Shown here: in pieces, positions 8,684 to 58,142 of the stretch
Layout of the letters: each line of letters begins with the position of its first letter
How positions within the stretch are numbered: the stretch's first letter is position 1
Source: a virus
Taxonomy: Duplodnaviria > Caudoviricetes
DNA length: 58,142 bases
Virus record (IMG/VR): IMGVR_UViG_3300013129_000001
Location: 1 to 58,142 of that record
Strand: one strand, 5' to 3'
Made by a program: the position numbers and the translations under genes
Notes under the pieces: model-generated
Database searches by the model: none
Told to the model about the DNA's origin: nothing
The model's input: only the letters and a program-made list of their open reading frames with translations

Positions 8684-9665
8684 ATAATTTAGCCTTTAAT
8701 TTTTTTGCCTGCTCTTCAGTAAGTAAAAACATCTTCCCTCCCGGACTCTTAGAACACTCTACCTTCCCCGTCTTACAGTAGTATTGCGCCATCCATTTCT
8801 GCCTGTCATTCTCCACAATATCAGATAAACGAATAAGCCTAAGCCATTCAGGAATAGCAAACTTACGATCGTAGCAAGAGATGGGAGATTTATGACCAAT
8901 AATATCAAAAAATTTACCGATAGAAGCAGCACAAATATGAATATCATTTTTAGACTTGTCTCTATTGCATTCAATACCTAAAGATCTTAACTTGGGCATG
9001 AGAATATTTTCAATATCTTCTATCGCAAATGCACAAGTAGCTAATCGCACAACATAAGTATTACAATCCTCAATATAAGTTAAACTACCATCACCTAAAT
9101 ACCATAAAAGAATACTGGTAGGAGTAATACGAACATCTGAGGGAACTTTCTTGGTTTGATTAGGTCCGGAATACCAACGCTCTGCCTGATGAACTATATC
9201 GGGATGAGTGAGAGTTTGTCCCATATAAATAGTGTTGGGGCATTTTTCTGTTACTTTACCGTAAACATTAGGATCGCTTGGTTTATAATCAATTAATTTA
9301 GAAAGTCCAAAAGAAACCCACTCTTTATTTGAAGAATCTAACCTAAATCTTGAAGATGCATATGTCGGCTTCCTAAAATTTATATATCCATCTCCAAGCA
9401 TTAAACCATCCACCCATTCAATTAGAGTCTCCGTCATATGGATTTTATTTTTATCTAACTCTCCCATAACCAAAGAAACACTCTCAGATTTTGTTCTTAA
9501 GGGAATATTATTATTAACAATGTCTTTGTATATTGTTGACGCACTAACAGAAAAACCAAATATATTAATGCTTTCTTTAGATATATCTGTGGTTGATTTT
9601 TTGTCTATTATATATGCCTGCTTTAATTTTTCAACATATAAAGTATCGTATGTTTTTTTCTTCAT
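8676..9665 (-). CDS. Free-standing double-motif LAGLIDADG homing endonuclease
   Basis: Two motifs, WVDGLMLGDGYI and LLWYLGDGSL. More AT-rich than the adjacent capsid gene. Confidence 0.85.
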   Translation of the reverse strand: MKKKTYDTLYVEKLKQAYIIDKKSTTDISKESINIFGFSVSASTIYKDIVNNNIPLRTKSESVSLVMGELDKNKIHMTETLIEWVDGLMLGDGYINFRKPTYASSRFRLDSSNKEWVSFGLSKLIDYKPSDPNVYGKVTEKCPNTIYMGQTLTHPDIVHQAERWYSGPNQTKKVPSDVRITPTSILLWYLGDGSLTYIEDCNTYVVRLATCAFAIEDIENILMPKLRSLGIECNRDKSKNDIHICAASIGKFFDIIGHKSPISCYDRKFAIPEWLRLIRLSDIVENDRQKWMAQYYCKTGKVECSKSPGGKMFLLTEEQAKKLKAKLFI

Positions 9666-9794: not shown

Positions 9795-10667
9795 TTAGCT
9801 ACCAGCCGTTACGAGAACTTCAGCAAGAGCGTAATCGTTAATGATTACAATACCGACTTCCTCATAGATGACCCAACCTAGCCTGAGCTTCTTGGGGTCA
9901 TCAGCAGGTAGAACAGTGATGTCCTGACGAATCGGGAATGCACCAACGTACTCAGCCGGAGCGAGCAACATGACTTTGGTGGTCGGGCAACGAGAGCTGA
10001 CATGAATATCAGCCGTGAACAGATGTCCGAACAAACCAGTCGTTAGAACTTCCTTCTGAGTGGCTTCATCGTATACCGTCTTACCGAAGTTACGAATGTC
10101 GGCATAACGAAGAGCGTGGCAAACGATCTTGCCAACGGTCAGGTCATGCTGTTCAATCGTAGCAAACGCCTGATTAAGGGCGTTCAAGCTGAGGGCACCA
10201 CCAGTAGAAACTACGATATTCGCCGGATTGCCAGCAATGGCAGCGAGAATAGCGTTGAAGATGTTGAGGTCTTCTTCCTTCTGGATGGCTTCCTTAGCCT
10301 TAATTTGGGCGCGGTCTACAATGTAGAACCTACGAGCCTTGACTTCCGACAAACGAATCGTCGGGTTAGTAGCAATTTCGAAAGTAGGAACAAGAATTTC
10401 CTCGCCTTCCGTAATCATGTCCGGTACAGCACCGCGTCTTGAAATGACGGCTGCGGTAGCGCGAACGTCTTTTTCATAACGAGCATAAGCACCCTGAGGT
10501 AGTTCGTCTACCATGAGGAGTTTACGACCAACTGCTTGATACTCTAGAGCCCTACGAATCGGTTCAACCATTGCCTGAGCAAGAGCGACACGACCTTCGG
10601 GGGTATCGAGAGCCTGAGCGATCAGGGCTTCTCTCTCTGCGTTTACTGCTTTCTTATCAATAGCCAT
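9795..10667 (-). CDS. Major capsid protein (HK97 fold)
   Basis: 290 aa with a strong AAGGAG RBS, followed by a terminator and downstream of the protease and decoration genes. Motifs such as LEYQAVGRKLLMVDELPQG, VPTFEIA and GWVIYEEVGIVIIN fit HK97/encapsulin-like shells. Confidence 0.85.
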   Translation of the reverse strand: MAIDKKAVNAEREALIAQALDTPEGRVALAQAMVEPIRRALEYQAVGRKLLMVDELPQGAYARYEKDVRATAAVISRRGAVPDMITEGEEILVPTFEIATNPTIRLSEVKARRFYIVDRAQIKAKEAIQKEEDLNIFNAILAAIAGNPANIVVSTGGALSLNALNQAFATIEQHDLTVGKIVCHALRYADIRNFGKTVYDEATQKEVLTTGLFGHLFTADIHVSSRCPTTKVMLLAPAEYVGAFPIRQDITVLPADDPKKLRLGWVIYEEVGIVIINDYALAEVLVTAGS

Positions 10668-10731: not shown

Positions 10732-11292
10732 TTAGACAACCAGCTTGAATTCGATGTACTGATTCGTGATTGCAGGCGTTAGACCGTTATTCCCGCCGAG
10801 AGCGATGTCACCGTTAATGTCGGTGCCCGGAACTCCCGAAGGATACGGACCAGCAGCCTGAGTCAGATACGCAACTACGAATGCCGCACCAGCGTCTTCG
10901 CCAGCACCAGCAGCCAGCCTACCCTTAACCGCATAGAGAGCCGAGTAAGGAACAGCAGAAGCGACGTTAGCCGCAAACTGATCCGTAGCGAACTCGCCAC
11001 CGGAGTGGTATACTGTCATCTTGCCAGATGCCTTGGTTTCATCGAAATAGTCCGAAACCCTGTTCTGCCAGCCAGCGGCGATGCCGGGCATTGCAGACTG
11101 AGTTGTGGACTTCGTATCACCCGCGATACCGTAGGTGATGTAATAGGTTGTATTGGTTGTAGTATCAGCTACACCTTCTAGCACAACCTGTCCCAGAGAG
11201 TTCAGGCATACGCACTGACCTTCAAGGATAGTCTGTCCAGCAGCAACGGGTCTTTCGGCCGCTACTACATGAAATTTTTCAACAAGAGCCAT
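10732..11292 (-). CDS. Probable capsid decoration/cement protein
   Basis: 186-aa Gly/Ala-rich ORF immediately upstream of the capsid gene, with a strong RBS and the motif ASGKMTVYHSGGEFATDQF. Confidence 0.65.
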   Translation of the reverse strand: MALVEKFHVVAAERPVAAGQTILEGQCVCLNSLGQVVLEGVADTTTNTTYYITYGIAGDTKSTTQSAMPGIAAGWQNRVSDYFDETKASGKMTVYHSGGEFATDQFAANVASAVPYSALYAVKGRLAAGAGEDAGAAFVVAYLTQAAGPYPSGVPGTDINGDIALGGNNGLTPAITNQYIEFKLVV

Positions 11293-11546: not shown

Positions 11547-14500
11547 TTACTTCTCGCCATAACGAGTCAAACTCTCGTCAAACGACTTATTGCCAATCGT
11601 AAAGGCTGAAGCAATCCTCTTGCTGAGTTCGTTAACGGGGTCGGAAGCCTTGATGTCCTTGGATTCCATAACAATCGCAGGACCCGCATGGACTTCCTTT
11701 GATTCCTGAGTTTCAGCCTGTTTCTTAATCTTAGGATACATACTATCGGCTACCGAGGCGATCTTATCAATTTCAACCTTGGACAGAGCCTCGACAACGT
11801 GTTCATAGGCTTCTTCAGTAATTCTCTTCGTAGCGAGTAACTTAGCAGCAATTTCAACAGCCTTCATCCTTCTGGCAACCGCTATTCTCTCTAACTGAAC
11901 GTCCTTCTTTTGTTGGACGGTCTTGAGCATTTCATCATTGATACCCGGCATACCCTTCTGAACTTCCTTTTCGTGACCCATATAGGCACTGTCAATCGGA
12001 ACATCCGGTCCCTTTAGATCCTTATTAATCGCAGAGTCGGCTTCCTTTTCTTTGCCCATATAAGCGTCCTTACGAGAAACATCCGGTCCCTTGTTAGGTT
12101 CATTGATGAGGGAATCAGCCTTAGATTCCTCGCCCAACTTCTGATCATTGCGAGGAACTTTAGCTTCTACATCTTTTTCTACCGTTTCAACTTCCTTCAT
12201 CTGCTTGGCTTTCTTAACCACCTTTTCTTCCTTGGCGATTACGGTGCCTTTGATTTCGTTGTTGATTGCAGGCATACCCTTTTGAACTTCTTTTTCCTTG
12301 CCCATGAATGCCGAATCTACAGCAACATCGGGGAGCTTCAATTCTTTATTGATCGCAGAATCAGCTTCTTTTTCCTTGCCCATGTAGGCATCCTTGCGAG
12401 GAACATCCGGTCCCTTGTTAGGTTCATTGATGAGCGAATCGGCCTTGGATTCCTCGCCCAACTTCTGATCATTGCGAGGAACTTTAGCTTCTACATTGCC
12501 TTCAATATCCTTAACCTTGGTAGGAGTAGCTGCGATTTTAACAACTTCCTCACCGACCCTCATGATTTTATGAGTTTGCATAGCTATTGCCATTTCTTTA
12601 TCTCCTGTTTTATCTGAAGATACAGCGTCTGAAGATACAGCAGCCGAAGATGCCGTATCGGAAGAAACTGCACTAGATGATTTTGCGTCTGACAAAGCAG
12701 CGTCCGATGAAGCTGCGTCTTTTCCAACCTCAGCAACTTCAGGAACAACCGGGGCTTCTCCGGTAGCTTCCTTGGCAGCATTGGCTAATTCTTCTGCGGT
12801 CTCCTTTGAAACCTCAATAGTCACTGTTTCAGCAGCCTCGTCAATAGAAGATCCAATATCAATATCAATCTCCTCTTCTGGAACTGCATCAACCGGAGCA
12901 GATTCTTCAACGAAGATATCATTAATAGCATCGAGGTCTTGAGCCGTAAGGACTTTTTCCTTGCCAGACTTGACATCATCTGCGAAAGCCATCAAGAATA
13001 CGTTGTCGTCCTCTGTCGATGCAAACTTCTTCTTCATGCACTTACAGGTTGTTTCTGCTTCCTTCTTAGTGAAACCGTGTAATTTCATTTGATCTTCGAC
13101 GCATTCGTCCATAGGATCTTTCTGCGTATAAACAGAGGCTAGTTTTTCCAGATGACGAACCTTGTTTAGTCCCAGTTTTTCCAATTGACTGCAAACGCAA
13201 TCGGCCAACGGCTTACCCTTGCAAGGTCCGAATGAGGCTACTGCATTTCCGCCCCACTTCCTAGCAATTCTCTCGATGCAATTAGCCATCGGGAATTTGG
13301 TCGTGCCGTTAGTGGCGTTCTTAATCATTCCCTGAACTTTCATCAGTGAAGCAAACTTGGCAACGGCCTGTTTGCAATTTGAGCATCCCTCGACGTTGGG
13401 AACCAAATCCCATTTAACTCTGAGATAATTTTGTTCAGGGTTATTGACATTAACGAACACATCCTTTTCTACTGCCGTCTTGCAAGCGGGGCAAGTAAAC
13501 TCGGTATGTCCTGCGTTTTCCTTGGACGCCTTGCAGTGCTTCATTCCGCAAGCAGGGCAAACATTTCCGTGTTTGGCGGCGTTAGCTGCTATTCTAACCA
13601 GACTTCCCTTGTCCCACTTGGTTTGAGCAGCAACTGGAAGGGCAGGAACTTCTGGGGCTTCAGGAGCTCCGGTAGCTTCGTCCTTACCAACGCTTCTGGT
13701 AGGCTTTGTAATCTTGAATTCAATTTCCTTCTTGACAAGAGCCTCATACTCAGCTCCGCAAGCATTACAAGTACCCTTGCCATTTCCACCCTCTTCGGTG
13801 GTTACGTCAACATCCGAGCTGCCGCATTCGGGACAAATTGACCACGGAGGCTGTTGCTGTCCAGCCGTGGGGATTTCGTCGGGAATTTCGGTGTCAACTT
13901 CGTCGGTTGTCAATGCCTGTATCGGTTGCTCTGTCGGAGCGGGGCCGGGAAGACCAGCTTCGGGGGCTCCGGGGGCAGTTACGCCACCGGGAGTTCCGGG
14001 AATTCCACCACCAGCTCCACCGATTTGAGCCTGCTTCTTTACACCTTTCTGGGATGCCGCGGCCGCATTATACGTAGGAAGTCCGGTTTCAGGAGAGATT
14101 TCTCCGCTTGAACCGGCCGGAGGCATATTTGCTTCCAATCCTTCGCCCGTCATATCTGCCTCGGGAACTGTTTCGCCCGTTGCAGGGGCAATTTCTTCGC
14201 CAACAGGAATTTCTACTGCCTGTTCGCCTGCGTCGGTCTGAACAGCTATAGAAATAGTATCGCCGCTAATGGTTACATTCGTGATTGCAGCCAATTTAAT
14301 GTTTTGAGAAGCAAGTGCTCCCCTTGCGAAACTCTTCAGTGTCGACTTGAAGCTGGGATCATCCTTAGATTTGCAACCAACTTCTGCGAAGGTCGTTTCA
14401 ACAATCGTATCAGCCTTTTTCTTCATAGCCTTTTTCTTCATATCAATGGACTTCGACAGAATGGCCCTTTCTGCCTCACGAGTAATTTTCGCATCTTCCT

Positions 14501-17075
14501 TGCCAACGGCAGCTAGAATTTCTTTTCTTTCCGTCTCTCTGGCTTCCTTGGACTTATCTTCGGAAGCACCCTTCAGAGCACTCCTCAGTTCGTCCTTCTT
14601 ACTTACCTTGATCGTCTGAGTCTTGGCTTCGGCCAGTTTCTCATCAACCTTCTTGCTGATAGCAGCCGGTCCTTGACCATCTTCAGTAGCAACGTCAAGA
14701 GCATCAATAATAACTTCAGGATTAATAGTTACGTCAGCAGCGACCTTCCTAAGTCCCCTTACGAGGGTTTCGGCAATCTCTTTGCTTCCAACGCCAGCTA
14801 CTTTAATATTCTTCTTGCTCCAATAAGCAAGTCTCTTGCTATAATCAACATCCTCGTCCTTGGAGGTATCAAGAATAGCATTGCCAAGATCATAACGATC
14901 CTTGGTTGATCCAACGAGAGAAGCGCCAACCTGACAAGCTTCTTCCGGAGTGCATCCAGTAGCAATAACGGTATTAGCGATAACATCGAGAACCGACTTC
15001 ATATGATCGCCGGCACTCTTGAACATGGCAGAGTCCCTCTTAGCAGCTCTGCCCCAAGGCGTATCGACGGCGTCGAGTTGCCTTTCGGTAATCTGCTGAG
15101 GCTCGGTACCAGTCCTATTTCCCTCTAACTGAGCCTGAGTTACTACATTCGGTGCATTTCCCTTGCGAGGAGAAACGCCATCGGAATGATTTTCCAATTG
15201 CGCCTCTGTAATAACATCACGCCCATCACCATCACGGCGAGGGTTGAGTTTGTTGGTTTTAGCCTGAAGTTGAGCTTCAGTAATGACTTCCTGCTCACCT
15301 TGGCGAAGACCCTTTAGCTGGTCCTCGGTAATCGTGTTCTTCTCTTCTTCGGTCCTAGAATGATAAAGACCCTTTTCAACAAGTTGGGCCTCAGTCACAA
15401 CTTCGGGAGCCTTATTAACTGACTTGGCCCCAGCTTCTTTAGTATTGTTTGTCATTACTGTCTCTCCTTCTTTTATTTGAGTTAAGTCCTTTGCGAATTT
15501 GCCCAAAAAGTATGAAGCCGCTTCCTTCGGATTATTTTTGATCATGTCCTTTTCATTATCTGTTAGTGTCTCGTAAGTCCAAGTCATTTTTTTTGGCGAC
15601 TCTTCATTCTTTTTCTCTGCAACAATAATAAATGAGTCGTCCCTCTTTTTTACAGACAACTTACTACTATTGTCCTGCACTGACGGGACTCTATTTATAT
15701 ACTCAAAAAACTCTTGTTTTTCCTTCCACGAATTTGATAAAACTTCAGTTGCCGTTTTTTGATGCTTCATCTTGGCATCTACTGTAAGTCTCTTACCCAT
15801 GGCATTTTCTCCCATATTATTGATTTTTTCAGTCAAATTTAACAGATTTTGAGATATGACCTGTATTCTTCGAGAATCAAAAGCTCTTGGTTTAGCCGGA
15901 GCCGTAATAGGCAATTTTGGCGATTTAACTAGAGGTGCTGTTGGGGATCCGGTCATAGTTCCAACCGCCGGAGCAGGAGCAGCGGCGCCCGGCAGCGGGC
16001 TTTCTGCCGCAACCGGTGTAGCATCCGGAGGAAGACCGGCCGGAGGAAGTTCAACGCCTCCGGGAGCAGCTCCGGCAGCTGGCGTACCCGATGCTGGGGC
16101 TTCAGCAACACCCGGTATGGAAGGCTGCATATTTCCAAAACCAGCACCAACCAACTCATCAACAAATGTTTGAAGTTCAGACAAAATATTAACCAAATCA
16201 CTTGCAAACTCGACTTCAACCTGCTGTCTATTCTTGATAAGTTGAATGGCAATATTTTCTAGTGTTGACAAAACCTCATTCAGCTGTTGTACTTCTTGTT
16301 GCCCGGCTTGTTTTTCAATCGAAGCCGTTTTAACCATAAACAAACTATTCTGCAAATTGGCGACCTTCTTGACAAGATCATCATTATTTATAAGACCCTG
16401 AATACGACAGGATGGGCAAGCCGGATCAACAACGGCACTGAGTTCTATGAATTTAATCCCATAGTTGTACTCAAAAACGGGATGATTGGTGAATTCCTTA
16501 ATTTCGCCGGTAACTACATTCTTAGCTCTACCCGAAAATGTTCTTCCCTTGCGTTCCTTAATATGAGAACAATAGTCATCCGTTTTTTCAGCCTTATTTC
16601 CGCAAATATTACATACACTATACTCAACAGAACATCCCATAGATACGCCAGTTATATACTCTTCTTCAATGCTTCTACATATATGTGGGAACGCCTCTCT
16701 ATCTACAAAAGATATGGTATAAACAGATTTTTCCTCGGGAAGCCACTCTGCAAAAATAACCTTACCTCTGGCATTTTCAACATTCTGATTATCATGGTTG
16801 GTGAAAAATGGAACGCCCTCAAATGTTTTATAAGCCTTCTTGAGTTCGTCTTCCGAGAAATAGTCACCATTAGAATTAGGCTCATTGGCTTTGATGGCTT
16901 TTGATCTAAAAAACAGAGCCGTTGGGTGCTTTTGAATTTCTGATTCTATAATTTTGGCTTTATCACTGCCGGGTTCTATGCAAATAGTTCCAGAAGCCAA
17001 TTTAACAAGCCCAACTTTCCCATCAAAATCTATGGGAAGTAACTTATTGTCACATAAGGCAAATTTGTAGATCAT
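11547..17075 (-). CDS. Giant prohead protease/scaffold polyprotein (1842 aa)
   Basis: N-terminal capsid-maturation protease motifs N.NGD.F, NHD, VSMGC and ELSAVVDPA, with a CNICG..CSH insert. These are followed by low-complexity linkers, zinc ribbons and repeats. Lies between the portal and capsid genes. Confidence 0.8.
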   Translation of the reverse strand: MIYKFALCDNKLLPIDFDGKVGLVKLASGTICIEPGSDKAKIIESEIQKHPTALFFRSKAIKANEPNSNGDYFSEDELKKAYKTFEGVPFFTNHDNQNVENARGKVIFAEWLPEEKSVYTISFVDREAFPHICRSIEEEYITGVSMGCSVEYSVCNICGNKAEKTDDYCSHIKERKGRTFSGRAKNVVTGEIKEFTNHPVFEYNYGIKFIELSAVVDPACPSCRIQGLINNDDLVKKVANLQNSLFMVKTASIEKQAGQQEVQQLNEVLSTLENIAIQLIKNRQQVEVEFASDLVNILSELQTFVDELVGAGFGNMQPSIPGVAEAPASGTPAAGAAPGGVELPPAGLPPDATPVAAESPLPGAAAPAPAVGTMTGSPTAPLVKSPKLPITAPAKPRAFDSRRIQVISQNLLNLTEKINNMGENAMGKRLTVDAKMKHQKTATEVLSNSWKEKQEFFEYINRVPSVQDNSSKLSVKKRDDSFIIVAEKKNEESPKKMTWTYETLTDNEKDMIKNNPKEAASYFLGKFAKDLTQIKEGETVMTNNTKEAGAKSVNKAPEVVTEAQLVEKGLYHSRTEEEKNTITEDQLKGLRQGEQEVITEAQLQAKTNKLNPRRDGDGRDVITEAQLENHSDGVSPRKGNAPNVVTQAQLEGNRTGTEPQQITERQLDAVDTPWGRAAKRDSAMFKSAGDHMKSVLDVIANTVIATGCTPEEACQVGASLVGSTKDRYDLGNAILDTSKDEDVDYSKRLAYWSKKNIKVAGVGSKEIAETLVRGLRKVAADVTINPEVIIDALDVATEDGQGPAAISKKVDEKLAEAKTQTIKVSKKDELRSALKGASEDKSKEARETERKEILAAVGKEDAKITREAERAILSKSIDMKKKAMKKKADTIVETTFAEVGCKSKDDPSFKSTLKSFARGALASQNIKLAAITNVTISGDTISIAVQTDAGEQAVEIPVGEEIAPATGETVPEADMTGEGLEANMPPAGSSGEISPETGLPTYNAAAASQKGVKKQAQIGGAGGGIPGTPGGVTAPGAPEAGLPGPAPTEQPIQALTTDEVDTEIPDEIPTAGQQQPPWSICPECGSSDVDVTTEEGGNGKGTCNACGAEYEALVKKEIEFKITKPTRSVGKDEATGAPEAPEVPALPVAAQTKWDKGSLVRIAANAAKHGNVCPACGMKHCKASKENAGHTEFTCPACKTAVEKDVFVNVNNPEQNYLRVKWDLVPNVEGCSNCKQAVAKFASLMKVQGMIKNATNGTTKFPMANCIERIARKWGGNAVASFGPCKGKPLADCVCSQLEKLGLNKVRHLEKLASVYTQKDPMDECVEDQMKLHGFTKKEAETTCKCMKKKFASTEDDNVFLMAFADDVKSGKEKVLTAQDLDAINDIFVEESAPVDAVPEEEIDIDIGSSIDEAAETVTIEVSKETAEELANAAKEATGEAPVVPEVAEVGKDAASSDAALSDAKSSSAVSSDTASSAAVSSDAVSSDKTGDKEMAIAMQTHKIMRVGEEVVKIAATPTKVKDIEGNVEAKVPRNDQKLGEESKADSLINEPNKGPDVPRKDAYMGKEKEADSAINKELKLPDVAVDSAFMGKEKEVQKGMPAINNEIKGTVIAKEEKVVKKAKQMKEVETVEKDVEAKVPRNDQKLGEESKADSLINEPNKGPDVSRKDAYMGKEKEADSAINKDLKGPDVPIDSAYMGHEKEVQKGMPGINDEMLKTVQQKKDVQLERIAVARRMKAVEIAAKLLATKRITEEAYEHVVEALSKVEIDKIASVADSMYPKIKKQAETQESKEVHAGPAIVMESKDIKASDPVNELSKRIASAFTIGNKSFDESLTRYGEK
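11935..12500 (-). repeat. Two-copy coding direct repeat in the scaffold, period 324 nt
   Basis: VEAKVPRNDQKLGEESKADSLINEPNKGPDV.RKDAYMGKEKEADSAINK...EKEVQKGMP.IN occurs twice. GGCATACCCT is at 11947 and 12271. Confidence 0.9.
15075..15404 (-). repeat. Six [IV]TExQL-like peptide repeats in the scaffold
   Basis: VTEAQL, ITEDQL, ITEAQL, ITEAQL, VTQAQL, ITERQL. Confidence 0.85.
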
Positions 17076-19366: not shown

Positions 19367-22300
19367 TTATTTTACCAGTGTCTTCTGCTTTTCTAGGGAT
19401 GCTTCTTTTTGCATGATGGTCTTAAGGATAGTACTCATGACACGTTCGGATTGATCTTCTATTTCTGAATCAGTGAATCGTAAGACCGTCCATCCAACCT
19501 GTGCCAGCTTTATATCTCTTTCTTTGTCATGAGCCAATTGTTTTGGTGATGAATGGAAGGTCTCTCCGTCCGCTTCAATGGCTATCTTAAGGTGTGGGAA
19601 TGCAAAGTCTATTGGATATTCAATTGAACCGAATTTTACGGGAAATTGAGGAGTCATTGGGTAACGAATAAGTCCGTTCTGAGAATACTCAGATATACGA
19701 TCCATTAATTGTCTTTCGCACTTTGTAAATACTATTCTACCCTTGGCGTCTCTAGCTCCCATCATTCCCGGAGCCTCTGGAACATCGGGTCTAGATTGTA
19801 CCTGCTTATAAGTTTTCTGCTTCTCTGCATCCATTCTTTCTCTGGTTTTCTTTTTCAAAATTCTACCACCATAGTTAGACGGATCGGCCATATTGTTTTC
19901 GGATGTTATGGTATTTTTGGTCGTCGCCATTGGAGGGGCTCCGGGTGCTGCTCCTGCCCCCACATCTCCCCCGGGCGCAGAAATAGGAGCTTCTCCCATA
20001 CCTCCTCCCGGTGGACCGCCAAGACCGCCAGCTTCTCCTCCGGGCATAGGAGGCATACCGCCACCAAACCCACCGCCCATGGCTCCTCCCGGCATTCCTC
20101 CGGCTCCACCAGCTGCGCCCATACCTTGACCCAAAGCCGCCATTTGAATGGCATCATATCTCTTTCTTTCAATTTCTTGGTCGGGGTCAAAATCAAAAGC
20201 TTCTAGAACCGTTTGAGCACTAAGAAGACCCTTCTCGTAAAGTTGCAATACAAATGTTCTAAATTGCTGTTGATCCCTAAGATGCATTGAGTTCCATTTG
20301 ATCTTGGGATAAATATATTCTTCTTCTTCTGACTCTGCATTTTCATCAATAAATCCCTGTCTCTGGGCTTCTGGCAAATAGATTTTTTGCTCGACCCAGT
20401 TAGCAACTTCTCTTCTGAAGGTCTGCAACCTTTCAATCATGGCTTCAATACCAACTGCGGCGTTAGAATTACCATGAATACCAAATAAACCACTTCTTTC
20501 GGTTATTATGAAATGATTGGGCACTTCAACGCACCATACTTTTCCAATATAGTCCTCGTCAGTAATAACTTCATTTTGTGATTGAGGCTTATTATAGCCA
20601 TTCCATTTTCTTGAGTCTAAAACTGGAAACTTGCCATTCTCCGTATCTGTCCAACTTATAGTATATTGAGTTTGCAAATTAGGACTATCAAATTTTATAG
20701 TTGCAAATCTGGGACTGTATCCAATCTTAAACAATATTTCTATAACATCGTCTCTTAATTGGGTTGAAACCGTTGTATAGCTATAATATTTTTTATCAGT
20801 TGCCTTCTTTTTGGTTGCAGGTCTTTCGCTTCCGTCGCATTCTACCAAAGCTCCCAAAAGAATCTTAAGTGCATCAACAGACATATTCTTAATATCTTTT
20901 GGGATATGTTTCTCGTTTGAAAGTTGACCACAGTTATTAACCAAATAAGAAACCAAATCTCTATTATCGCTATTTGAAATTGCGAAACTATTTTTGACTG
21001 ATGGATATATTTTACAAACATTATTGGCACTAAGAACTTTTTTCATTTTTTCATATACGTCTGGGTTTGCGGTTGGACTTTGGGAAATGTCAACACTATA
21101 TATCTTATTATTTCTTTGAGAATCCTTATGTCTTGACCCTTCGCTTATATACCACCCAATAATCTGAAGGAAGTCTTCTGTCTTTATTCCAAAATATTCT
21201 ACCTTATCATCCGTCTTACTTTCCCACTTATCCACACATGCTCTAAACTTTCCTCTTAATTTAACATCAGAAGCCTCAATAACTGACCATTTACCAAATC
21301 CTTCTTTTCTATTATGTATCTCTCTGGGGGCATATAACATCCTATGATTATCTGTTACAAGCATATCAATTCTATTAGTCTTAAAATGCTTAAGTGGTTT
21401 ACTATCGCCATTTATAGAATCATGGTCATATTCATACCTCTTTGTGGCTTTCTGATACTCAAGTGCTCCGGTATCTTTATTAAATGTGGCTATTAAATCT
21501 TTTTCAATATCTAATTCTTTTCTATATTTAAGTCCATTATCAGTAAGTATTCTGGTATCATCGCTCAGGCAAAAATTCGGTCCTTCGCCATTTAACAAAG
21601 CATTATTGATCATCATGCCGTCAAGTATTTCCTGATTGATCAACTCAAATTCATTAGATAGAGTAAGAACTTTACCAGCAGCGCCATACCAATCTAATTC
21701 AAATGCATGATGGGTAACAATAGTGAGATTTGGATCATTAGCGGTTTGTGCTAGTTGCTCTTGGACAGCAGCTATATCGGCAGGTCCGGCGGGACGCTCA
21801 TCGCTACCAACCTTAACGATTTTGATAGGAACAATAAGTCTTTCGGCCACTATCCATTGAGCAACCATTAACTTGGTCTTATAAGATAGGATGGGGAAAA
21901 GACGACGAACCATACCAACGCCATAACGAGTATATCCACCTTCGCCATATTTCAAGTGATATACATTGCGGTTATCCAAACGAATGGGTTTACCGGCCGC
22001 TACAAGAGTTCTAACTTCTGGCGTAAGTCTTTCATATCCCGGAGTTCTTCGCTGAACCATATTTACAAGCTCTTCGTCTGGCTTGAGTGCAATAACGGGC
22101 TCGGGGTTCATGGGAGACGTATAAACTTCAACATAGTCCGGATTAAGAATTACAATACGACGAACAGTGCCTCCCAAGTGCTCGCATAGCTCATCTCCGG
22201 TTCTACCAGATCCACCACAGTGTTCGCACGATATTTCGATGAAGGGGAAACAATCGCCCAAAAGATGAACCTCATGGCTAACCAGTCTCAACCACTTTGA

Positions 22301-22753
22301 CAATTCTATTCTCTTCTTCATCTTGTCAAAGTATTTTTTTACCTCTCTGTCCTTGCATTCGTTTTCAAAATCATTCATCGAGAAATAGCTATAAAAATCA
22401 ATAGAGGCAGCAACCTTGGGTTCATTCTCATAGAAGAATCTAGCCCACTGATATTGCTCTAACCTCTTGGACGGAATTTGCCAATTGATCGGAGTATGAA
22501 CCGGAGAGAAAAACTGAGGCTGACCGTAAACGATGCCAGAATTAGCACCGGCAAAACGATTAAAACCAGAGCCAAAAGCCCCGTGAACAGAGGTTGTAGG
22601 AGCATAATTCTGGTTAGGAATAGACTTATAATCGGGGGTATACGGAACACCATTCTCCCTCATTTTAGAGGGATCTTGATTCCTTATGGCTCGGAATGTA
22701 GAATCCAAATCATTAGTTTGGATGACTGGACCATTACTACCGCTGTCTGCCAT
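19367..22753 (-). CDS. Portal protein with intein and C-terminal DUF559/Vsr-like nuclease domain
   Basis: Portal-like segments FYENEPKVAASIDFY, HLLGDCF, IVILNPDYVEV, VYHLK..YG.G and IVPIKIVKVG, upstream of the protease and capsid genes. The C-terminus reads IDFAFPHLKIAIEADG..FH..DKERD..L...GWTVLRF. Confidence 0.85.
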   Translation of the reverse strand: MADSGSNGPVIQTNDLDSTFRAIRNQDPSKMRENGVPYTPDYKSIPNQNYAPTTSVHGAFGSGFNRFAGANSGIVYGQPQFFSPVHTPINWQIPSKRLEQYQWARFFYENEPKVAASIDFYSYFSMNDFENECKDREVKKYFDKMKKRIELSKWLRLVSHEVHLLGDCFPFIEISCEHCGGSGRTGDELCEHLGGTVRRIVILNPDYVEVYTSPMNPEPVIALKPDEELVNMVQRRTPGYERLTPEVRTLVAAGKPIRLDNRNVYHLKYGEGGYTRYGVGMVRRLFPILSYKTKLMVAQWIVAERLIVPIKIVKVGSDERPAGPADIAAVQEQLAQTANDPNLTIVTHHAFELDWYGAAGKVLTLSNEFELINQEILDGMMINNALLNGEGPNFCLSDDTRILTDNGLKYRKELDIEKDLIATFNKDTGALEYQKATKRYEYDHDSINGDSKPLKHFKTNRIDMLVTDNHRMLYAPREIHNRKEGFGKWSVIEASDVKLRGKFRACVDKWESKTDDKVEYFGIKTEDFLQIIGWYISEGSRHKDSQRNNKIYSVDISQSPTANPDVYEKMKKVLSANNVCKIYPSVKNSFAISNSDNRDLVSYLVNNCGQLSNEKHIPKDIKNMSVDALKILLGALVECDGSERPATKKKATDKKYYSYTTVSTQLRDDVIEILFKIGYSPRFATIKFDSPNLQTQYTISWTDTENGKFPVLDSRKWNGYNKPQSQNEVITDEDYIGKVWCVEVPNHFIITERSGLFGIHGNSNAAVGIEAMIERLQTFRREVANWVEQKIYLPEAQRQGFIDENAESEEEEYIYPKIKWNSMHLRDQQQFRTFVLQLYEKGLLSAQTVLEAFDFDPDQEIERKRYDAIQMAALGQGMGAAGGAGGMPGGAMGGGFGGGMPPMPGGEAGGLGGPPGGGMGEAPISAPGGDVGAGAAPGAPPMATTKNTITSENNMADPSNYGGRILKKKTRERMDAEKQKTYKQVQSRPDVPEAPGMMGARDAKGRIVFTKCERQLMDRISEYSQNGLIRYPMTPQFPVKFGSIEYPIDFAFPHLKIAIEADGETFHSSPKQLAHDKERDIKLAQVGWTVLRFTDSEIEDQSERVMSTILKTIMQKEASLEKQKTLVK
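20468..21571 (-). mobile_element. 368-aa intein with LAGLIDADG homing endonuclease, inside the portal gene
   Basis: N-junction GPNF|CLSDDTRILT, block B VTDNHRM, endonuclease motifs IIGWYISEG and LGALVECDG, C-junction VWCVEVPNH..GIHGN|S. Confidence 0.9.
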
Positions 22754-52299: not shown

Positions 52300-54327
52300 A
52301 TGAAAATTATCCGTATATCGACAACGGTATCTAAAATGCCCAATGAGGAGATTCGTGCTAAACTCATAGGTAACATTCCTGTCAATAAAGCTATACCTCT
52401 AATCAATGAGGCATTTAAACGAAATGATATGGAGTGCTTTTTCACCATAGCAAGCAACTACCATTATTCTAATCATCCGACAATATCCAAACTCATATGG
52501 AATATAATGGAAAGAAACCCACAATATCCATACAACTGGAATATTGTAACGGCATTTTTAAACTCTTTTAGTTGGAATAATAGTGCTGAATATACGGTAC
52601 TAAAGCCCAAAATGCTTTCTCTCTCGCTCGTCAATCCCAAAATAACTTCAGCCATAATACTACATTCGCAAATTCCAGCCGATCTTACCGACAGTATATT
52701 CAACAATCTACCTCTTGGCGATCCTAGAAAAACAACTCTTGAAAACAGCCCACACCTACAATCTATACTTGAGGATTTGAAATCGGGAATATCATGGGGT
52801 AATCAGCGAGCGGGACTTATCATGACTACTAGAATAGTTCGTAGTCCACAAGACAGGTTTGTAACAGAAGTAAGCAAATACAATCTGGAACCGGGATTTG
52901 CATTGGCGATAATCAATATAGGGAAGACATATAAGAATCAGAATCCAGAATTAAGCAAAAACATTAAAGGCAACAAAAATCTAGGAATACAAATAGCACA
53001 TTTCGCCACGTTAATTCCAACATCAAATCCACAAATAATAATCCCTTCCTTACTAGATATAATCAAGAGCAAAGACTATGACAACAATAAACAGTGGATG
53101 GATTTAGTATGGAACTCTGTATTTGAAAAAATGAAAGACCCATCATGGATGACGAGTTTATTTACGATTACCTATACTGGCGAAGATGTTATATCAACTA
53201 TAATAGACCATCGGCCGGATTTTATACCCAACATAATTGATTCCATTAAGCAATCTCCGAATATTGCCGACATTATATCTTCAAAAGCCTTCAAAAAACT
53301 TATCGAAACAAGCTTCCAAAATACACAATACAAAAACAAGATACTAGAACTACCCGAGGAATACTTTGACATGATTGACCTAAGCCCTATTAACAGGTCA
53401 ATCGTTCAAGAGCATTTTAATCCAATCATAGAGGACTATGAAAACCTAAAAGAACTTCTTGGAACCAAAACAAACTGGTACGTTAAATATGCCGAAGTAC
53501 AAAAATTACTCAAAGAAGCTGGGTGGTTTAATAATCTAAGCCCTAGACAGCAATCTTTTGTTATTACACTAATTTCAATATTAAGTTCTATTTCTGCTGT
53601 TTTCGAAGCTGGAGCGATAAGAAAATTTCTAGATTCAAAAAACATTCCAGAGGCACAACAGCAGGCATTGGTTCAAACCGTTAACCAGTTAACCTATCAG
53701 CAGAAAAATATAGAACAACTAACCAGTCAGGATATTGCTATGGCAAAACAGAAACTTGATGAAGTAACCAATAAGGCACTACATCAAAAAGTTGATAGAA
53801 CTGTACAAAAAATACAGACCACAAAAGAACAAAGTATAGAGGCAGGAGAACTAGATATTGAAGCCGCCAAAGATAGCATCAGAAAACATGAAGGAAAAAG
53901 TAATAAAGTATATCTAGATCCATCAAAGAAAAATTGGTGCGTTGGGTACGGATTCAACCTTAATAAGCCAAATTCAAAATTCATTATTCAATCTATCGGC
54001 GCAGACTACAATAGGGTACTTAGTGGCCAACAAATACTAACTGATAATCAAATAGAAAAACTTCTCGATATAAGTGTCAAAGAAGCCATATCTATCGCAG
54101 AAGATTTTACCATCAACTATAATGAATTACCATCAAAAGCAAAATTGGTTTTAGTCAATATGGCATTCATGGGAAGAGGAACTTTAAATGAATTCAAAGA
54201 TCTAAAAAACTCACTGTCCAATAATGATTACAATAAAGCAGCCGATGATATGTTAGATTCTCTTTGGGCTAAGCAAGTAGGTAGAAGAGCAACTGAATTA
54301 GCAGATATCATGAGGTCGCTTACTTAA
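52300..54327 (+). CDS. Large protein with C-terminal T4-type (GH24) lysozyme domain
   Basis: C-terminal KHEG...VYLD...VGYGFNL...LVNMAF.G...AADDMLDSLWAKQVGRRA. A hydrophobic segment FVITLISILSSISAVF lies upstream. Confidence 0.85.
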   Translation: MKIIRISTTVSKMPNEEIRAKLIGNIPVNKAIPLINEAFKRNDMECFFTIASNYHYSNHPTISKLIWNIMERNPQYPYNWNIVTAFLNSFSWNNSAEYTVLKPKMLSLSLVNPKITSAIILHSQIPADLTDSIFNNLPLGDPRKTTLENSPHLQSILEDLKSGISWGNQRAGLIMTTRIVRSPQDRFVTEVSKYNLEPGFALAIINIGKTYKNQNPELSKNIKGNKNLGIQIAHFATLIPTSNPQIIIPSLLDIIKSKDYDNNKQWMDLVWNSVFEKMKDPSWMTSLFTITYTGEDVISTIIDHRPDFIPNIIDSIKQSPNIADIISSKAFKKLIETSFQNTQYKNKILELPEEYFDMIDLSPINRSIVQEHFNPIIEDYENLKELLGTKTNWYVKYAEVQKLLKEAGWFNNLSPRQQSFVITLISILSSISAVFEAGAIRKFLDSKNIPEAQQQALVQTVNQLTYQQKNIEQLTSQDIAMAKQKLDEVTNKALHQKVDRTVQKIQTTKEQSIEAGELDIEAAKDSIRKHEGKSNKVYLDPSKKNWCVGYGFNLNKPNSKFIIQSIGADYNRVLSGQQILTDNQIEKLLDISVKEAISIAEDFTINYNELPSKAKLVLVNMAFMGRGTLNEFKDLKNSLSNNDYNKAADDMLDSLWAKQVGRRATELADIMRSLT

Positions 54328-54510
54328 TATCTTTTCCTATTTCTAAATGTTTCCCGAAGTAGTTTGATTTTGAAATTTCCTATATAGGACCACTTCTAAT
54401 ATATTAGAGATCTTATATTAGACTTATAATTACTAGTATATTAGGGAAAGGAATGCCAATCCATAAATGTCTATTTGTAAACGACTTATAAAAGTTCAAA
54501 TGCTCAAATT

Positions 54511-54642
54511 TGAGTTTATTTTACTCGGTATAGTATGGTTGCAAGAGTAAAATAAACTCACCATCAAAGTAAATTTTACTTACGACCATATTAGGAATAG
54601 TAAAATATACTCACTATTGTATTTTTTGAGTATAATTTACTA
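54511..54642. repeat. Five AGT(W)7ACT palindromic boxes in an AT-rich non-coding gap
   Basis: Boxes start at 54513, 54546, 54568, 54599 and 54629. The first two form a perfect 16-bp inverted repeat. Confidence 0.8.
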
Positions 54643-54665
54643 ACTTAAAAATTTTTCATTTTTTG

Positions 54666-54694
54666 TTGCGGAAAATTTTACCCATCTGTATAAT
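54666..54694 (+). promoter_or_regulatory. Sigma70-type promoter
   Basis: TTGCGG-17 nt-TATAAT with an AT-rich upstream element. Confidence 0.75.
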
Positions 54695-54769
54695 AGACTC
54701 GAACATGACAATAGGTTATGTTCCCATCCCTGATGGTTTCAGGAGAGCGTGTAGGAGAAGGAGAAAAAC

Positions 54770-55741
54770 ATGTCCACATCCACACCAGTTAGTTCAGTAG
54801 AGAGTCAGTCAAACCCCGCAACCTCAACTTACGATTCATGGGAGTCCCGTATTCAAAATGCGGCCACTTTCATGGGACTGTCGGTTAAGACAGTTGAAGG
54901 GGGTCTTAAAACCCTAGGAGTTGAGAAAGAACCAGCCGGACTGGAAATGCTTTCTGATGAGAGCATTACTCCATTTGGGGACATTAGAGCAATCTTTTGC
55001 GATAATGATATGTTCGGCAAGATACCCATCGCCAAGGTTAGAATGGCAATGAAGTATCTTAGAGGTCCAAAAGGAAGTAACAAAACAGATACCATTGATC
55101 CTGAGATTATTGAATTGAAGAATAAGTATGGTATCAAAATGAAGATGGAAGATGTTGAGCCATCTGAACTGCTTGAACATTACCATCCCGATAAACCCAA
55201 CCATCCTGTCACAGCAGCTCTTAAAAAGAGATATGGCGATAAAGCCGTTATCGCTTTTAAGCCAGACTCTAAGGCTGTTGATGTTGAAGAGACGGCGAAT
55301 TATATGGCTGACTTGGAACAGGGTTATGAAGAACAGGAAACCATTGAAGTTGATGGAGTTCTTGTTAGGCTATATCCTGTTGGAAAAATTCCTGACGAGA
55401 TGGTTGAAGAGGATCCTCTATTCCCGGGACACGCTCTTAGAAGGGGCAGATCTCAGGTAAATAGGATTAATTGGTCTAATATCGGGCAAGATGTTCGTGT
55501 GTTCTGCCGTATTATCGTTGATATGCAGACCATTGACGAGAAGAAGTTCTTCGAAGCCAGGGAGCTAATAAAGACGGCTCAGCAGGGATGGAATGAACTC
55601 AAGAAGTGCTACCCTGAAGCCGATCTCCGATATAGGGAGATGTCTAAGAGAGGCGAACTTCCCAAACTACTTCTGTCTATGGATGAATCTAATGGTAAAA
55701 AGCAAAATCCATTCGGAGTTGGCAATAACAGGAGATTCTAA
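54770..55741 (+). CDS. Hypothetical protein
   Basis: 323-aa ORF with a strong AAGGAG RBS; no family recognised. Confidence 0.8.
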   Translation: MSTSTPVSSVESQSNPATSTYDSWESRIQNAATFMGLSVKTVEGGLKTLGVEKEPAGLEMLSDESITPFGDIRAIFCDNDMFGKIPIAKVRMAMKYLRGPKGSNKTDTIDPEIIELKNKYGIKMKMEDVEPSELLEHYHPDKPNHPVTAALKKRYGDKAVIAFKPDSKAVDVEETANYMADLEQGYEEQETIEVDGVLVRLYPVGKIPDEMVEEDPLFPGHALRRGRSQVNRINWSNIGQDVRVFCRIIVDMQTIDEKKFFEARELIKTAQQGWNELKKCYPEADLRYREMSKRGELPKLLLSMDESNGKKQNPFGVGNNRRF

Positions 55742-55749
55742 TTGAGAAA

Positions 55750-55778
55750 GGGGAGGCAGAGATTTTCTCTGCCTCCCC
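55750..55778 (+). terminator. GC-rich hairpin (terminator or RNA-stabilising stem)
   Basis: Stem GGGGAGGCAGAGA/TCTCTGCCTCCCC with a weak U tract. Confidence 0.55.
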
Positions 55779-55809
55779 GATTCATTAGGAGTAGTTATGT
55801 CAACTTGGC

Positions 55810-57078
55810 TTGGGGATCCTAAAAAAAGAAATCGCCTATAGAGAGTGGAAGGAAAACATGAAAAAAGATACTAGACAAATAGAGTTTGACGGTTCAATCA
55901 GAGACTATCTGATGAGGAACAGTGGTTTTACAGTTGGTCTTAATATGCCAACAGCATTAAGTGGAGAAACGACTTTTGGTTTGCCGCCTTATTCAAAACG
56001 AATGCCGTTCTTGGTCGATAAATATCCATCCTGTCCAAAAGACTGGATGAGGAGCGAAGGTAAGATTAAGAGCTTCTTTGTCCCTGTAATAGAAGGAAGA
56101 GGCATGTGGCTAGATTTCAACGAAAACGAAAATAACTCACATCATGTTGCAATAGTTATATCGGTACAGGGCGTAAATCCAGTAACCGGAATGCCTTGTC
56201 ACGATGCCCAACTAGAACAGTATATCGAAGAGTGTCCAAAGCATAAGATTAAGTTTGGACCAGATCGTTATTGTTCCAAATGCGATTATAAATGGCCGAA
56301 ACAAAACTATATCAGTACAACGGCTACTCCCAGAGGGCTATTGTGGCTAGATGGTTTTAGAACAGTTGAAGGTGTTGTAAGGCAATACATTCTGACTGCC
56401 GAAAAAATGCGAGGAGTTGCTTCTAATGTAATAGGCAAGGATAGGGTATATGCTATTGGGTTGAGTTTCTTCGTATCAAAAGAAAAAAGACCTCCTCAGG
56501 TTGATACGGGGATTCTAAGGGGAATGACAGTTGGATCCGCATCAAGTACGACATACGGAAGCCCAATGTGGTACTCTCCAGTTCATACTCCGATTAATTG
56601 GCAAATTCCGGGAGACTCTCTAGAATCTCTTGGAGAAATTGGAGATTCATATACCGATAATTCTACTAGTGGAGGAGGAACTCAATCTAACATCAACTTT
56701 ACTTGCAGTAACTCGTCACCTCAATATGGAGAAGCAACAAAGAGCAGTAAACGCAGTAAGGGAGTACAAAAATGCTTCTCCTCTGGTTTAAACTTGGGTC
56801 AGGCTCAATTATCTAAATTGTCAAACGATCCCAACCTTAAAATAACAACTCATCATGCGATTCAAGTTCAAAAATTAGAGGTTGGAGCAGGAGCGAAAAT
56901 TAGTCAGGCTGTTTATGATGATCCGGAAAGATTGGAATTCTGGCATGATACTCCGGAATCCATCATATGCATTAATTATTGCAGCGAAGATGACGCTCGC
57001 AAAATCGTTGAACAAGGGGAGGTTAATATAGAAGGGCACAAGGAAGGGTTTTTAAAGGAAGTACCGGTTGGTAACTAA
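55810..57078 (+). CDS. Uncharacterised protein carrying two portal-like peptide blocks
   Basis: Core motifs GMWLDF, VQGVNPVTG, QNY and WLDGF..GVVRQ. The start is uncertain (55858 or frameshifted 55797). The C-terminal Ser/Gly-rich region has SPVHTPINWQIP and NDPNL...THHA. Confidence 0.8.
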   Translation: MGILKKEIAYREWKENMKKDTRQIEFDGSIRDYLMRNSGFTVGLNMPTALSGETTFGLPPYSKRMPFLVDKYPSCPKDWMRSEGKIKSFFVPVIEGRGMWLDFNENENNSHHVAIVISVQGVNPVTGMPCHDAQLEQYIEECPKHKIKFGPDRYCSKCDYKWPKQNYISTTATPRGLLWLDGFRTVEGVVRQYILTAEKMRGVASNVIGKDRVYAIGLSFFVSKEKRPPQVDTGILRGMTVGSASSTTYGSPMWYSPVHTPINWQIPGDSLESLGEIGDSYTDNSTSGGGTQSNINFTCSNSSPQYGEATKSSKRSKGVQKCFSSGLNLGQAQLSKLSNDPNLKITTHHAIQVQKLEVGAGAKISQAVYDDPERLEFWHDTPESIICINYCSEDDARKIVEQGEVNIEGHKEGFLKEVPVGN

Positions 57079-57095
57079 AAAGAAAGGATGAAGTC

Positions 57096-57848
57096 ATGAA
57101 AAAGAATTACACACATATTAGCGTAGTATTGGATAAGTCAGGTTCAATGGAGAGTTGTCTAAAAGATACTATTGGTGGATTCAATCAGTTTTTGAAGACC
57201 CAGAAAGAACTTAAGGGCGATGCTACATTCACAATGGTTCAATTTAACTGCAATTATGATATGATTGTAGATATGCTACCATTGAAGAATGTAGAAGAAT
57301 TGAGCAATGAAAATTACTGTCCCAATGGAGGTACGGCTCTTTTGGACGCTATCGGAAGAACTATTAATAATGTCGAAAGTAAAATTAATGATAAAGACGA
57401 AGATGCGAAGCCAGAAAAGGTCATTTTCGTTATCATTACCGATGGAGAGGAAAATTCTAGCAAGGAATTCAATCGTGAACAGATTATGCAAATGATTAAC
57501 AACCATAGAAGCGAACAAAAGTGGGAGTTTGTATTTATCGGTGCTAATCAGGACGCAATTCAGTCCGGAAGCGGAATGGGAGTCAGAGCGGGAAATTCTC
57601 TTAGTTATGCCGCCTCTGGTGCCGGTGTTCAAGCCATGTATTGCTCGCTAACCAAGGGTATGACAAGCTATAGAAGTTTAAGTTTTGATGAAACAAAAGA
57701 TATGGACTTCTTTGACGCAACAGATAGAGAGGCACAGGAAGATTTGGGAGCTCAGAAAAGTTCTTTCATAAAGAATCCCAAGGGTATGTTCCAAAATATG
57801 TATGCAGGAACAACAACCGATGTCAAAAAGCCCAAGTCTAAAAAATAA
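57096..57848 (+). CDS. von Willebrand factor A domain protein
   Basis: MIDAS DKSGSM, GGTALLDAIG, IITDGEENSS and FIGANQDA. Confidence 0.9.
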   Translation: MKKNYTHISVVLDKSGSMESCLKDTIGGFNQFLKTQKELKGDATFTMVQFNCNYDMIVDMLPLKNVEELSNENYCPNGGTALLDAIGRTINNVESKINDKDEDAKPEKVIFVIITDGEENSSKEFNREQIMQMINNHRSEQKWEFVFIGANQDAIQSGSGMGVRAGNSLSYAASGAGVQAMYCSLTKGMTSYRSLSFDETKDMDFFDATDREAQEDLGAQKSSFIKNPKGMFQNMYAGTTTDVKKPKSKK

Positions 57849-57861
57849 CTCCAGATAATAC

Positions 57862-57897
57862 AAAAAAAGGAGAAGATATTTGATCTTCTCCTTTTTT
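57862..57897 (+). terminator. Bidirectional rho-independent terminator
   Basis: Stem AAAAAAGGAGAAGAT/ATCTTCTCCTTTTTT with A and T tracts on either side. Confidence 0.8.
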
Positions 57898-58020
57898 GTT
57901 TTTAGAGGGTTATTTTGGAATCCAGAGAGTTGATATACTGCCAATGGTCACAGAACATCGAGGGAAAGACCTTGCCTATAGATGTCTGATATCATTGGGC
58001 TTATTTAAAGATGCTCTATA

Positions 58021-58142
58021 TGAACTACCCAAACACTAAAGATGTTTGGGTTTCGTGACTCACAGACTTGTCTTTGACTTGTGCAAAGACAAGTCTGACA
58101 ACGCCTCCTCACGTTTTTATTTATACTAAGAATGCATCCCAC
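58021..58142 (-). mobile_element. Probable IS200/IS605-family (tnpB) right end / omega-RNA scaffold 3' part
   Basis: Minus strand ends GAAACCCAAACATCTTTAGTGTTTGGGTAGTTCA (8-bp subterminal hairpin plus TAGTTCA), preceded by a 14-bp hairpin. The tnpB gene itself is not visible in the window. Confidence 0.55.

Follow-up and report, generated by a model that had tools for sequence, protein, structure and literature searches.

Why should a phage protein carry, in a disordered loop, short copies of segments of the phage's own head proteins? This question is raised by a gene at 55858..57078 (+) of the IMG/VR record IMGVR_UViG_3300013129_000001 (Caudoviricetes), the whole stretch of which, 58,142 nucleotides (nt) in length, is referred to here as the window. 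The product, referred to as the loop-display protein, contains two blocks that copy the portal protein encoded on the opposite strand, and the loops of its relatives additionally carry copies of capsid, decoration-like, and scaffold segments. All of the loop copies stem from head-assembly proteins; they greatly exceed what chance would give, and they look like deliberate self-mimicry by the phage. The first-pass annotation of the window had noticed the two portal-like blocks; the capsid, decoration-like, and scaffold copies in the relatives' loops were absent from it, and these copies point to head assembly as a whole and not to the portal alone. The window represents part of a megaphage genome (CheckV completeness estimate, 14%), and its closest cultured relative is Bacillus phage G, whose capsid protein is 54.7% identical.

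Head-Protein Peptides in the Disordered Loop

The loop comprises residues 216-334 (56503..56859, +) and is predicted to be disordered, with predicted local distance difference test (pLDDT) values of 41-54 and no secondary structure in the AlphaFold2 model. Block 1 (56551..56610, +; core 56575-56610), delimited by BLASTP and DNA alignment, copies a segment of the portal N-terminal arm. All 12 core residues are identical to those encoded at 22472-22507 (-), and 34 of the 36 nt are shared; both differences are synonymous (Pro CCA/CCG and Ile ATT/ATC), and the flanking sequences are unrelated at the DNA level. Protein similarity continues for approximately 8 residues upstream of the core (BLASTP, 19/32 identical, E 6e-10). 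Block 2 (56800..56859, +; core 56824-56859), which immediately precedes the first strand in the C-terminal part of the core, copies a putative portal clip segment, encoded at 21704-21739 (BLASTP, 16/34 identical, E 9e-6; 13/20 in a short-word search). The order of the two blocks is the same in the loop-display protein and in the portal. The identity of block 1 to the portal, the match of block 2, and their common order, all reported in the first-pass annotation, are therefore upheld.

It also holds that the blocks are portal-like peptides situated in the disordered loop and that the protein is otherwise unrelated to the portal, the comparison of the profile of the loop-protein family (alignment A1) with that of the portals (A2) finding block 1 only (18 columns, probability 50.6%). 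The protein does not belong to the phrog_16240-type portal family: BLASTP aligns the two blocks only, and the predicted fold is a beta-sandwich. The profile comparison gave no support to the idea that the C-terminal core is homologous to the portal region following block 2, and this idea was rejected. The blocks lie at residues ~232-334 of 406, within the loop, and not at the N-terminus as a T4-type targeting tag would. Furthermore, block 1 and its source do not look like a diversity-generating retroelement pair, as only 36 nt are shared, the flanks are unrelated, and the differences are A/G and T/C. A chimeric assembly, named in the first-pass annotation as an outcome fatal to its claim, was not seen: contigs assembled separately from three metagenome runs span 56200-57078 without differences, and one 45.6-kb contig contains both the loop gene and the portal block. 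The three runs may be source samples and are thus not independent; independent support for the blocks is provided by dozens of homologues in other assemblies.

The extent of the copying was determined from 155 family members (120 proteins and 35 loci), in which 139 loops were delimited, 133 of them distinct. These loops were searched against all stop-to-stop open reading frames (ORFs) of the window with a short-word search (E<0.01), and head-protein matches were found in 46 of the 133, in a lineage related to Bacillus phage G. Portal block 1 occurs in 37 of these loops and portal block 2 in 11, whereas segments of the major capsid protein (9795-10667) and of a decoration-like protein (10732-11292) occur in six and five, respectively. 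Twenty shuffles of the 133 loops gave zero matches to these head-protein segments. The terminase (584 residues) and the ribonucleotide reductase (843 residues) encoded in the window gave zero matches to the loops, and other, equally invariant stretches of the portal were never found in them. Among 142 further representatives, a copy of the capsid N-terminal segment (P0188), a copy of a scaffold repeat (P0130), and a 16/18 copy of the capsid block (P0162) were identified. The blocks occur in varying combinations (block 1 alone in 25 loops, blocks 1 and 2 in six, block 1 with a capsid block in three, and block 1 with the decoration-like block in three), and the decoration-like block precedes block 1 in some loops and follows it in others. 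An all-against-all comparison of the loops revealed no other strongly recurrent motif. As a separate observation, an eight-residue motif is present in 10 of 282 members, often beside block 1 or a capsid block (for example in L014, P0084, and P0125), and the only related motif elsewhere among the fetched genomes lies at the capsid E-loop tip.

The copied segments were placed in their source proteins from sequence and from predicted structure. The portal gene (19367..22753, -; 1128 residues) matches phrog_16240 (E 4.4e-35), and its product is 36% identical to gp14 of phage G. The portal source of block 1 (22472..22528, -) is a coil directly before the first long helix in the model, where pLDDT is below 50; among the 80 IMG/VR loci listed, 79 portal or portal-like ORFs contain its core pattern. 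The source of block 2 (21704..21757, -) lies between two predicted stem helices and is invariant in 21 portals; in view of the canonical portal topology, it would correspond to the portal clip. A sequence search found no solved relative of the portal, and the AlphaFold2 model is poor (mean pLDDT 53.6); the block positions are thus set by helix order only.

The major capsid protein (9795..10667, -) matches phrog_2522 (E 2e-66) and gp27 of phage G (PDB 6wkk, E 3e-92). The two segments of it that are copied in the relatives' loops, residues ~61-85 (10413-10487, -) and ~4-46 (10530-10658, -), fall within the first 90 residues of this HK97-fold protein, which, from the established knowledge of the fold, should hold the N-arm and the E-loop; the former segment would be the E-loop strand and tip, and the latter the N-arm. 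The decoration-like protein (10732..11292, -) is encoded directly upstream of the capsid gene and has a weak match to phrog_1731 (E 0.0038); it occupies the position of phage G gp26, annotated as 'capsid decoration', and has no sequence similarity to gp26. Its copied segment is encoded at 11035-11073 (-). The remaining source is a head maturation protease fused to a scaffold-like repeat protein (11547..17075, -; 1842 residues; phrog_18299, E 4.4e-15), one repeat of which (15072-15152, -) is copied in the loop of P0130 (E 1.5e-7). Portal and HK97-capsid elements of these kinds make contacts between subunits, and interface mimicry is favoured because the source segments usually touch neighbouring subunits or partners. 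In addition, many repeats of a short motif resembling the capsid E-loop tip region are present in the protease-scaffold protein, and a similar motif is found in a 548-residue protein encoded beside the terminase gene (41975-43621, -).

Origin and Turnover of the Blocks

The codons of the blocks were compared with those of their sources. In block 1 of the window, 9 of 11 synonymously variable codons are identical to those of the portal gene (expected 4.15, P=0.0025), which suggests that the portal gene has recently refreshed the block by gene conversion. In block 2, only 3 of 10 such codons are identical (expected 4.4, P=0.91), and in the capsid block in the loop of one relative (G011), 13 residues are identical to those of the genome's own capsid protein, with five identical codons. 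Both of these blocks thus appear to be conserved as protein only, a pattern that fits selection on the peptide. In the 47 copies of block 1 found in loops, residues outside the search pattern are also conserved, although this profile is partly circular, as the pattern fixed some positions. The copy of block 1 ends sharply just before the first helix of the portal.

The portals fall into two subtypes of block 1, type I and type II, and the coupling of loop copies to these subtypes was examined on a FastTree phylogeny of 282 members, in which the portal type was taken from tree neighbours and not from the same genomes. At the main discriminating position, I, V, or L is found in 38 of the 42 carriers nearest to type I portal genomes, and Q in none of them; in the five carriers nearest to type II portal genomes, by contrast, Q is found three times and I, V, or L not at all. 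A carrier of the latter group (P0148) has type II residues at three of the four discriminating positions. The five type II carriers form one small part of the tree and amount to approximately one independent event. These sequence data support the conclusion that, within a clade, the variant of block 1 corresponds to the subtype of the portal. Co-variation of the blocks with each genome's portal, which had been proposed as a check in the first-pass annotation, was thus assessed at the level of clades, through the tree: both the loop gene and the portal are present in only 8 of the 35 IMG/VR records, and none of these eight has an intact block 1. They include one with a degenerate remnant of block 1 (L005), one with a partial block 2 (L011), and one with the only clear block, which is derived from the capsid protein (L014). 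A search with a second DNA pattern yielded two new contigs only, neither of which has a block.

The blocks were seen exclusively in clades with this portal family in their genomes. In one complete genome without this portal family (G010), and in two further genomes (G014 and G017), the homologues have no self-match at E<=0.1. Absence or decay of the blocks in close homologues had been put forward as grounds for abandoning the idea of portal mimicry. This outcome was found in part, since approximately two-thirds of the loops are blockless and some show decayed block remnants, whereas the 46 loops noted above carry blocks. The frequent gain and loss and the existence of blockless homologues indicate that the blocks are an add-on within one lineage, placed on top of a core function of the family.

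Possible Docking Motifs, Decoys, or By-Products

The reading that is preferred here, albeit tentatively and at somewhat less than an even chance, is that the loop peptides are putative binding elements, namely linear motifs that occupy the sites of the matching head-protein segments and thereby dock on head proteins or compete with them. Each peptide would occupy the site used by the same segment in head assembly; this binding site may be located on an adjacent subunit or on a partner held in common, for example scaffold or terminase. Through such binding, the loop would either tether a complex of the beta-sandwich protein and a vWA protein to head proteins or to intermediates of assembly, or act as their competitor, and as an outcome the protein could be attached or targeted to heads, or assembly could be held back or regulated. 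The beta-sandwich protein is envisaged to work with the vWA protein and with the product of a conserved upstream partner gene. This reading is preferred because the same few head segments recur, because some blocks are conserved as protein only, because block 1 matches the portal subtype, because the blocks are restricted to one lineage, because the source segments are of the interface type, and because the edge of block 1 is sharp. The combination of a beta-sandwich with a vWA domain, which is a typical binding or adhesion pairing, is likewise counted in its favour.

Several points weigh against the docking of the peptides on head components. Of the 133 loops, 87 are without any block; on the tree, the presence of block 1 changes at least 37 times, with 47 of the 282 members being carriers; and in the genomes G018, G023, and G004, all three of which are complete or nearly so and hold this portal family, the homologues have no self-match at E<=0.1. 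An essential assembly factor is not expected to be so patchy. Moreover, the coupling to the portal subtype depends on one small type II clade and on portal types taken from tree neighbours, the positions of the blocks in the portal depend on a poor model (mean pLDDT 53.6), and the core fold has no informative structural match (best Z 4.6; nothing in Foldseek at E<=0.001). Finally, the loop gene lies 33 kb from the head module, beside genes of nucleotide metabolism.

The patchiness is more readily accommodated if the loop acts as a decoy, an explanation that is unlikely yet survives best among the alternatives. The loop would show the least mutable peptides of the head, and host sensors, or proteins of satellites that hijack heads, would bind the decoy instead; the beta-sandwich/vWA part would then, in a further step that is no more probable, block activation of the sensor or inactivate it. 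Understood in this manner, the loop could, again with low probability, be an evolvable cassette of the phage's own head epitopes, baiting host sensors or capsid-hijacking satellites and competitors and retargeted by the swapping of peptides. The patchy, mosaic, and quickly changing block content resembles an arms race, and the blocks are accessory, as indicated by the blockless homologues in the three genomes named above. In the portal and the capsid protein, the copied segments rank among the most invariant stretches, the peptides are situated on an exposed disordered loop in the model, and the loop gene is located outside the structural module. Sensing of conserved head pieces by hosts, which is the premise of a decoy, is known from the Lit protease, which responds to the Gol peptide in the capsid protein of T4, and from Avs4, which responds to the portal. 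Against a decoy, the loop-display protein matched no defence or anti-defence model (PADLOC, the library of which consists of defence and not counter-defence proteins), and a portal sensor such as Avs4 as the target, suggested in the first-pass annotation, is unsupported. Furthermore, no copy of the terminase was found, although the terminase is encoded in the window and is a commonly sensed phage protein, and the known sensors of portal and terminase are known to recognise proteins in their folded state and not as linear peptides; if a mimic resembles the ligand that activates a sensor, it could even trigger that sensor rather than block it. Shielding by competition for the same site has a parallel in lambda CIII, which protects another protein from FtsH, but CIII is a small helical peptide, whereas the loop-display protein has a mosaic display loop. 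To our knowledge, no phage decoy displaying the phage's own head peptides has been reported.

Rather improbable is an origin of the blocks as a neutral by-product, in which a permissive loop captures fragments of head genes by ectopic recombination and gene conversion refreshes them, the peptides being functionless. The sharing of portal codons by block 1 in the window and its sharp edges would be explained in this manner, as would the many loops with decayed remnants or with nothing and the dispensability of the blocks; in one relative (P0052), the loop seems, by eye, to be a condensed copy of approximately the first 90 residues of the portal. However, the same few segments recur, and other parts of the portal and other conserved genes never do. 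Block 2 and the capsid block of a relative keep their residues while their synonymous sites have diverged, residues outside the search pattern are conserved as well, and the varying order and combination of the blocks imply several captures of the same segments. Purely neutral capture is therefore disfavoured on the sequence evidence. A further origin, as scars of inteins, was considered and rejected, because the copy of block 1 stops before the insertion site found in the portals of relatives and no intein was seen in the long loops.

It is very unlikely that the peptides are shared processing tags, that is, recognition sites of a single enzyme or chaperone with head proteins among its targets, such as the maturation protease, a host chaperonin, or a host protease. 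The further proposal, that the loop-display protein would be processed, loaded, or protected together with head proteins, or would be a competing substrate, is held with equally little confidence. All source proteins are procapsid components made together with the protease-scaffold protein, and the peptides lie in a loop that is accessible in the model; however, no single motif unites the four main blocks, processing is not known to take place at the portal clip or at the capsid E-loop, and the decoration-like protein is not expected inside procapsids. Assembly chimerism or chance similarity has next to no probability, being ruled out by the per-run contigs without differences, the homologues elsewhere, and the shuffles without matches.

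Besides the systems already named, the closest known ones are the following. Short linear motifs in viral mimicry, known mainly from viruses of eukaryotes, are similar in that a conserved short peptide in a disordered region copies a binding motif and turns over rapidly; here, however, the phage's own head proteins are copied and not those of the host, and several sources contribute to a single loop. The capsid targeting sequences of T4 and the cargo-loading peptides of encapsulins are also short peptides, which direct a passenger to an HK97-type shell or scaffold, but they sit at protein termini, do not copy shell or portal sequences, and are removed by cleavage in T4, whereas the head-segment copies described here are internal. 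Lambda gpD, which adds a strand to the sheet of the capsid E-loop, likewise provides an extended peptide that docks on a capsid interface; it is nevertheless a dedicated small trimer without any copy of the capsid protein, and the loop-display protein has another predicted fold and variable blocks. Literature searches at the level of listings and abstracts found no description of a phage protein displaying copies of its own head proteins. The phenomenon looks like one of a kind not described before, each of the nearest concepts differing from it in a defining respect.

If functional, the peptides would mark the short portal, capsid, and scaffold segments that matter as binding sites in the heads of giant phages, and they would show a virus putting structural motifs of its own to a second use in trans, namely in docking on head assembly, regulating it, or protecting it. 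If the decoy reading were true, they would represent a bait-based counter-defence that can be retargeted by peptide swapping. As the peptides are short and defined, the idea is directly testable. The family is large (at least 716 clusters), is unannotated, and has no match in the collection of cultured-phage genomes searched, and an assigned function would annotate many megaphage genomes.

The Loop-Display Protein, Its Neighbours, and Side Observations

The longest ORF at this locus starts with TTG at 55810 and comprises 422 residues. The ATG at 55858 is likely the true start, in agreement with a database twin (P0001) that also has 406 residues, and it replaces the start at 55810 given previously. 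A promoter scan of 54000-58142 detected seven sigma-70-like sites, as compared with 10.4 expected from shuffles, and none upstream of the loop gene, where a sigma70-type promoter had been annotated. The best sigma-70-like match (56598-56626, +) lies inside the loop gene and is probably due to chance; its first hexamer falls within block 1, and the portal gene thus carries the same hexamer. The label 'non-structural', previously attached to the protein, is left unsupported.

A word-indexed search returned 270 matches to the loop-protein family, and the count of clusters given above was obtained by an exhaustive profile search (E<=1e-3). Contigs with family members are up to 548 kb long. In Pfam, PHROG, PADLOC, and NCBIfam, the protein has no family match beyond weak zinc-ribbon hits in Pfam, and sequence searches of the PDB gave only chance-level matches. 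No match to it was found by tblastn in the collection of cultured phages, and phage G has no match to the family profile at E<=1. A scan of a genome collection identified members in only five contigs of metagenome-assembled genomes, which gave no clue to the host. The exact gene sequence is present in five freshwater-sediment metagenome runs; separately, one wastewater run contains part of a relative's loop-protein gene.

The AlphaFold2 model of the loop-display protein has a mean pLDDT of 80.1 and a predicted template modelling score of 0.72. The N-terminal part of the core (residues 1-215; 55858..56502, +) is predicted with pLDDT values of mostly 84-98 and contains a Cys-rich zinc ribbon (~56233-56283, +), the Cys residues of which are invariant in the family alignment; the weak zinc-ribbon matches in Pfam include Ribosomal_L32p, for example, in 15 of 112 family members. 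The C-terminal part (residues 335-406; 56860..57075, +) has values of mostly 84-97, decreasing to 76 at the last residues. Structural alignments (VIA-align) cover residues 13-387, with generic immunoglobulin-like or MSP-type beta-sandwiches as the best matches (Z of at most 4.6), and Foldseek retrieved nothing from the PDB at E<=0.001. Because these alignments span both confident parts, the core is read, in the model, as a single beta-sandwich unit with an inserted zinc ribbon, split by the disordered loop. DUF7918 was seen only as a structural neighbour of one homologue (P0101; TM score 0.37-0.50) and is not among the 25 families listed of the 39 Pfam families in the scan of members. Across the family, the loops have a median length of 119.5 residues and a Ser content of 13.8%. 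Collagen-like Gly-X-Y runs of at least four and up to 11 triplets are present in 17 of 216 loops (for example, in P0171, P0235, and L023), and Pfam Collagen was matched by one family member; these runs hint that some loops of the family may form extended or trimeric stalks.

The conserved upstream partner gene is located at 54770..55741 (+); its homologue lies directly upstream of the loop gene in 31 of the 35 IMG/VR loci, and its product has no family or PDB match. Downstream, the linked partner (57096..57848, +) encodes a vWA-domain protein (phrog_7371, E 1e-63; weak VWA matches in Pfam). A vWA gene is found within 3 kb of the loop gene in 11 of the 35 loci. Among 10 long family members tested, eight have an N-terminal VWA-type Pfam match, one of which is weak, and VWA is present on 41% of the members in one structural-neighbour cluster. 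The family is thus associated with vWA domains by adjacency or by fusion, a link that was missing from the first-pass annotation.

Further observations concern the head genes themselves. A DUF559 nuclease domain is encoded at the C-terminus of the window's portal (19415-19630, -; E 2e-11), and in all 21 aligned portals (A3), the C-terminal end is formed by a Gly-rich linker and, after it, a DUF559/Vsr-like nuclease domain in which acidic and His residues are invariant; the portal-nuclease fusion is unusual and, judging from these alignments, appears to be conserved across the megaphage lineage. The portal gene of the window also contains an intein (approximately ~20456-21577, -), which was read from the translation and corresponds to a length excess of 374 residues over intein-free relatives; it is located in the loop after the second stem helix. 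In other portals (L043, L048, and many of L115-L194), intein-like insertions are present ~10 residues after block 1 and eight residues after block 2, so that the copied segments adjoin favoured intein sites. Two small proteins (L052:1351-1662, +, 103 residues; L053:1432-1695, +, 87 residues) resemble a stretch of the portal that begins at the strand preceding the clip helix and includes block 2 (profile E 2.4e-5 and 4.2e-5, respectively); both megaphage records are without a detectable portal of this family, and the proteins may be clip-like proteins in their own right. An ORF immediately downstream of the capsid gene (8676-9665, -) has two LAGLIDADG-like motifs, read by eye in the translation, and probably encodes a free-standing homing endonuclease.

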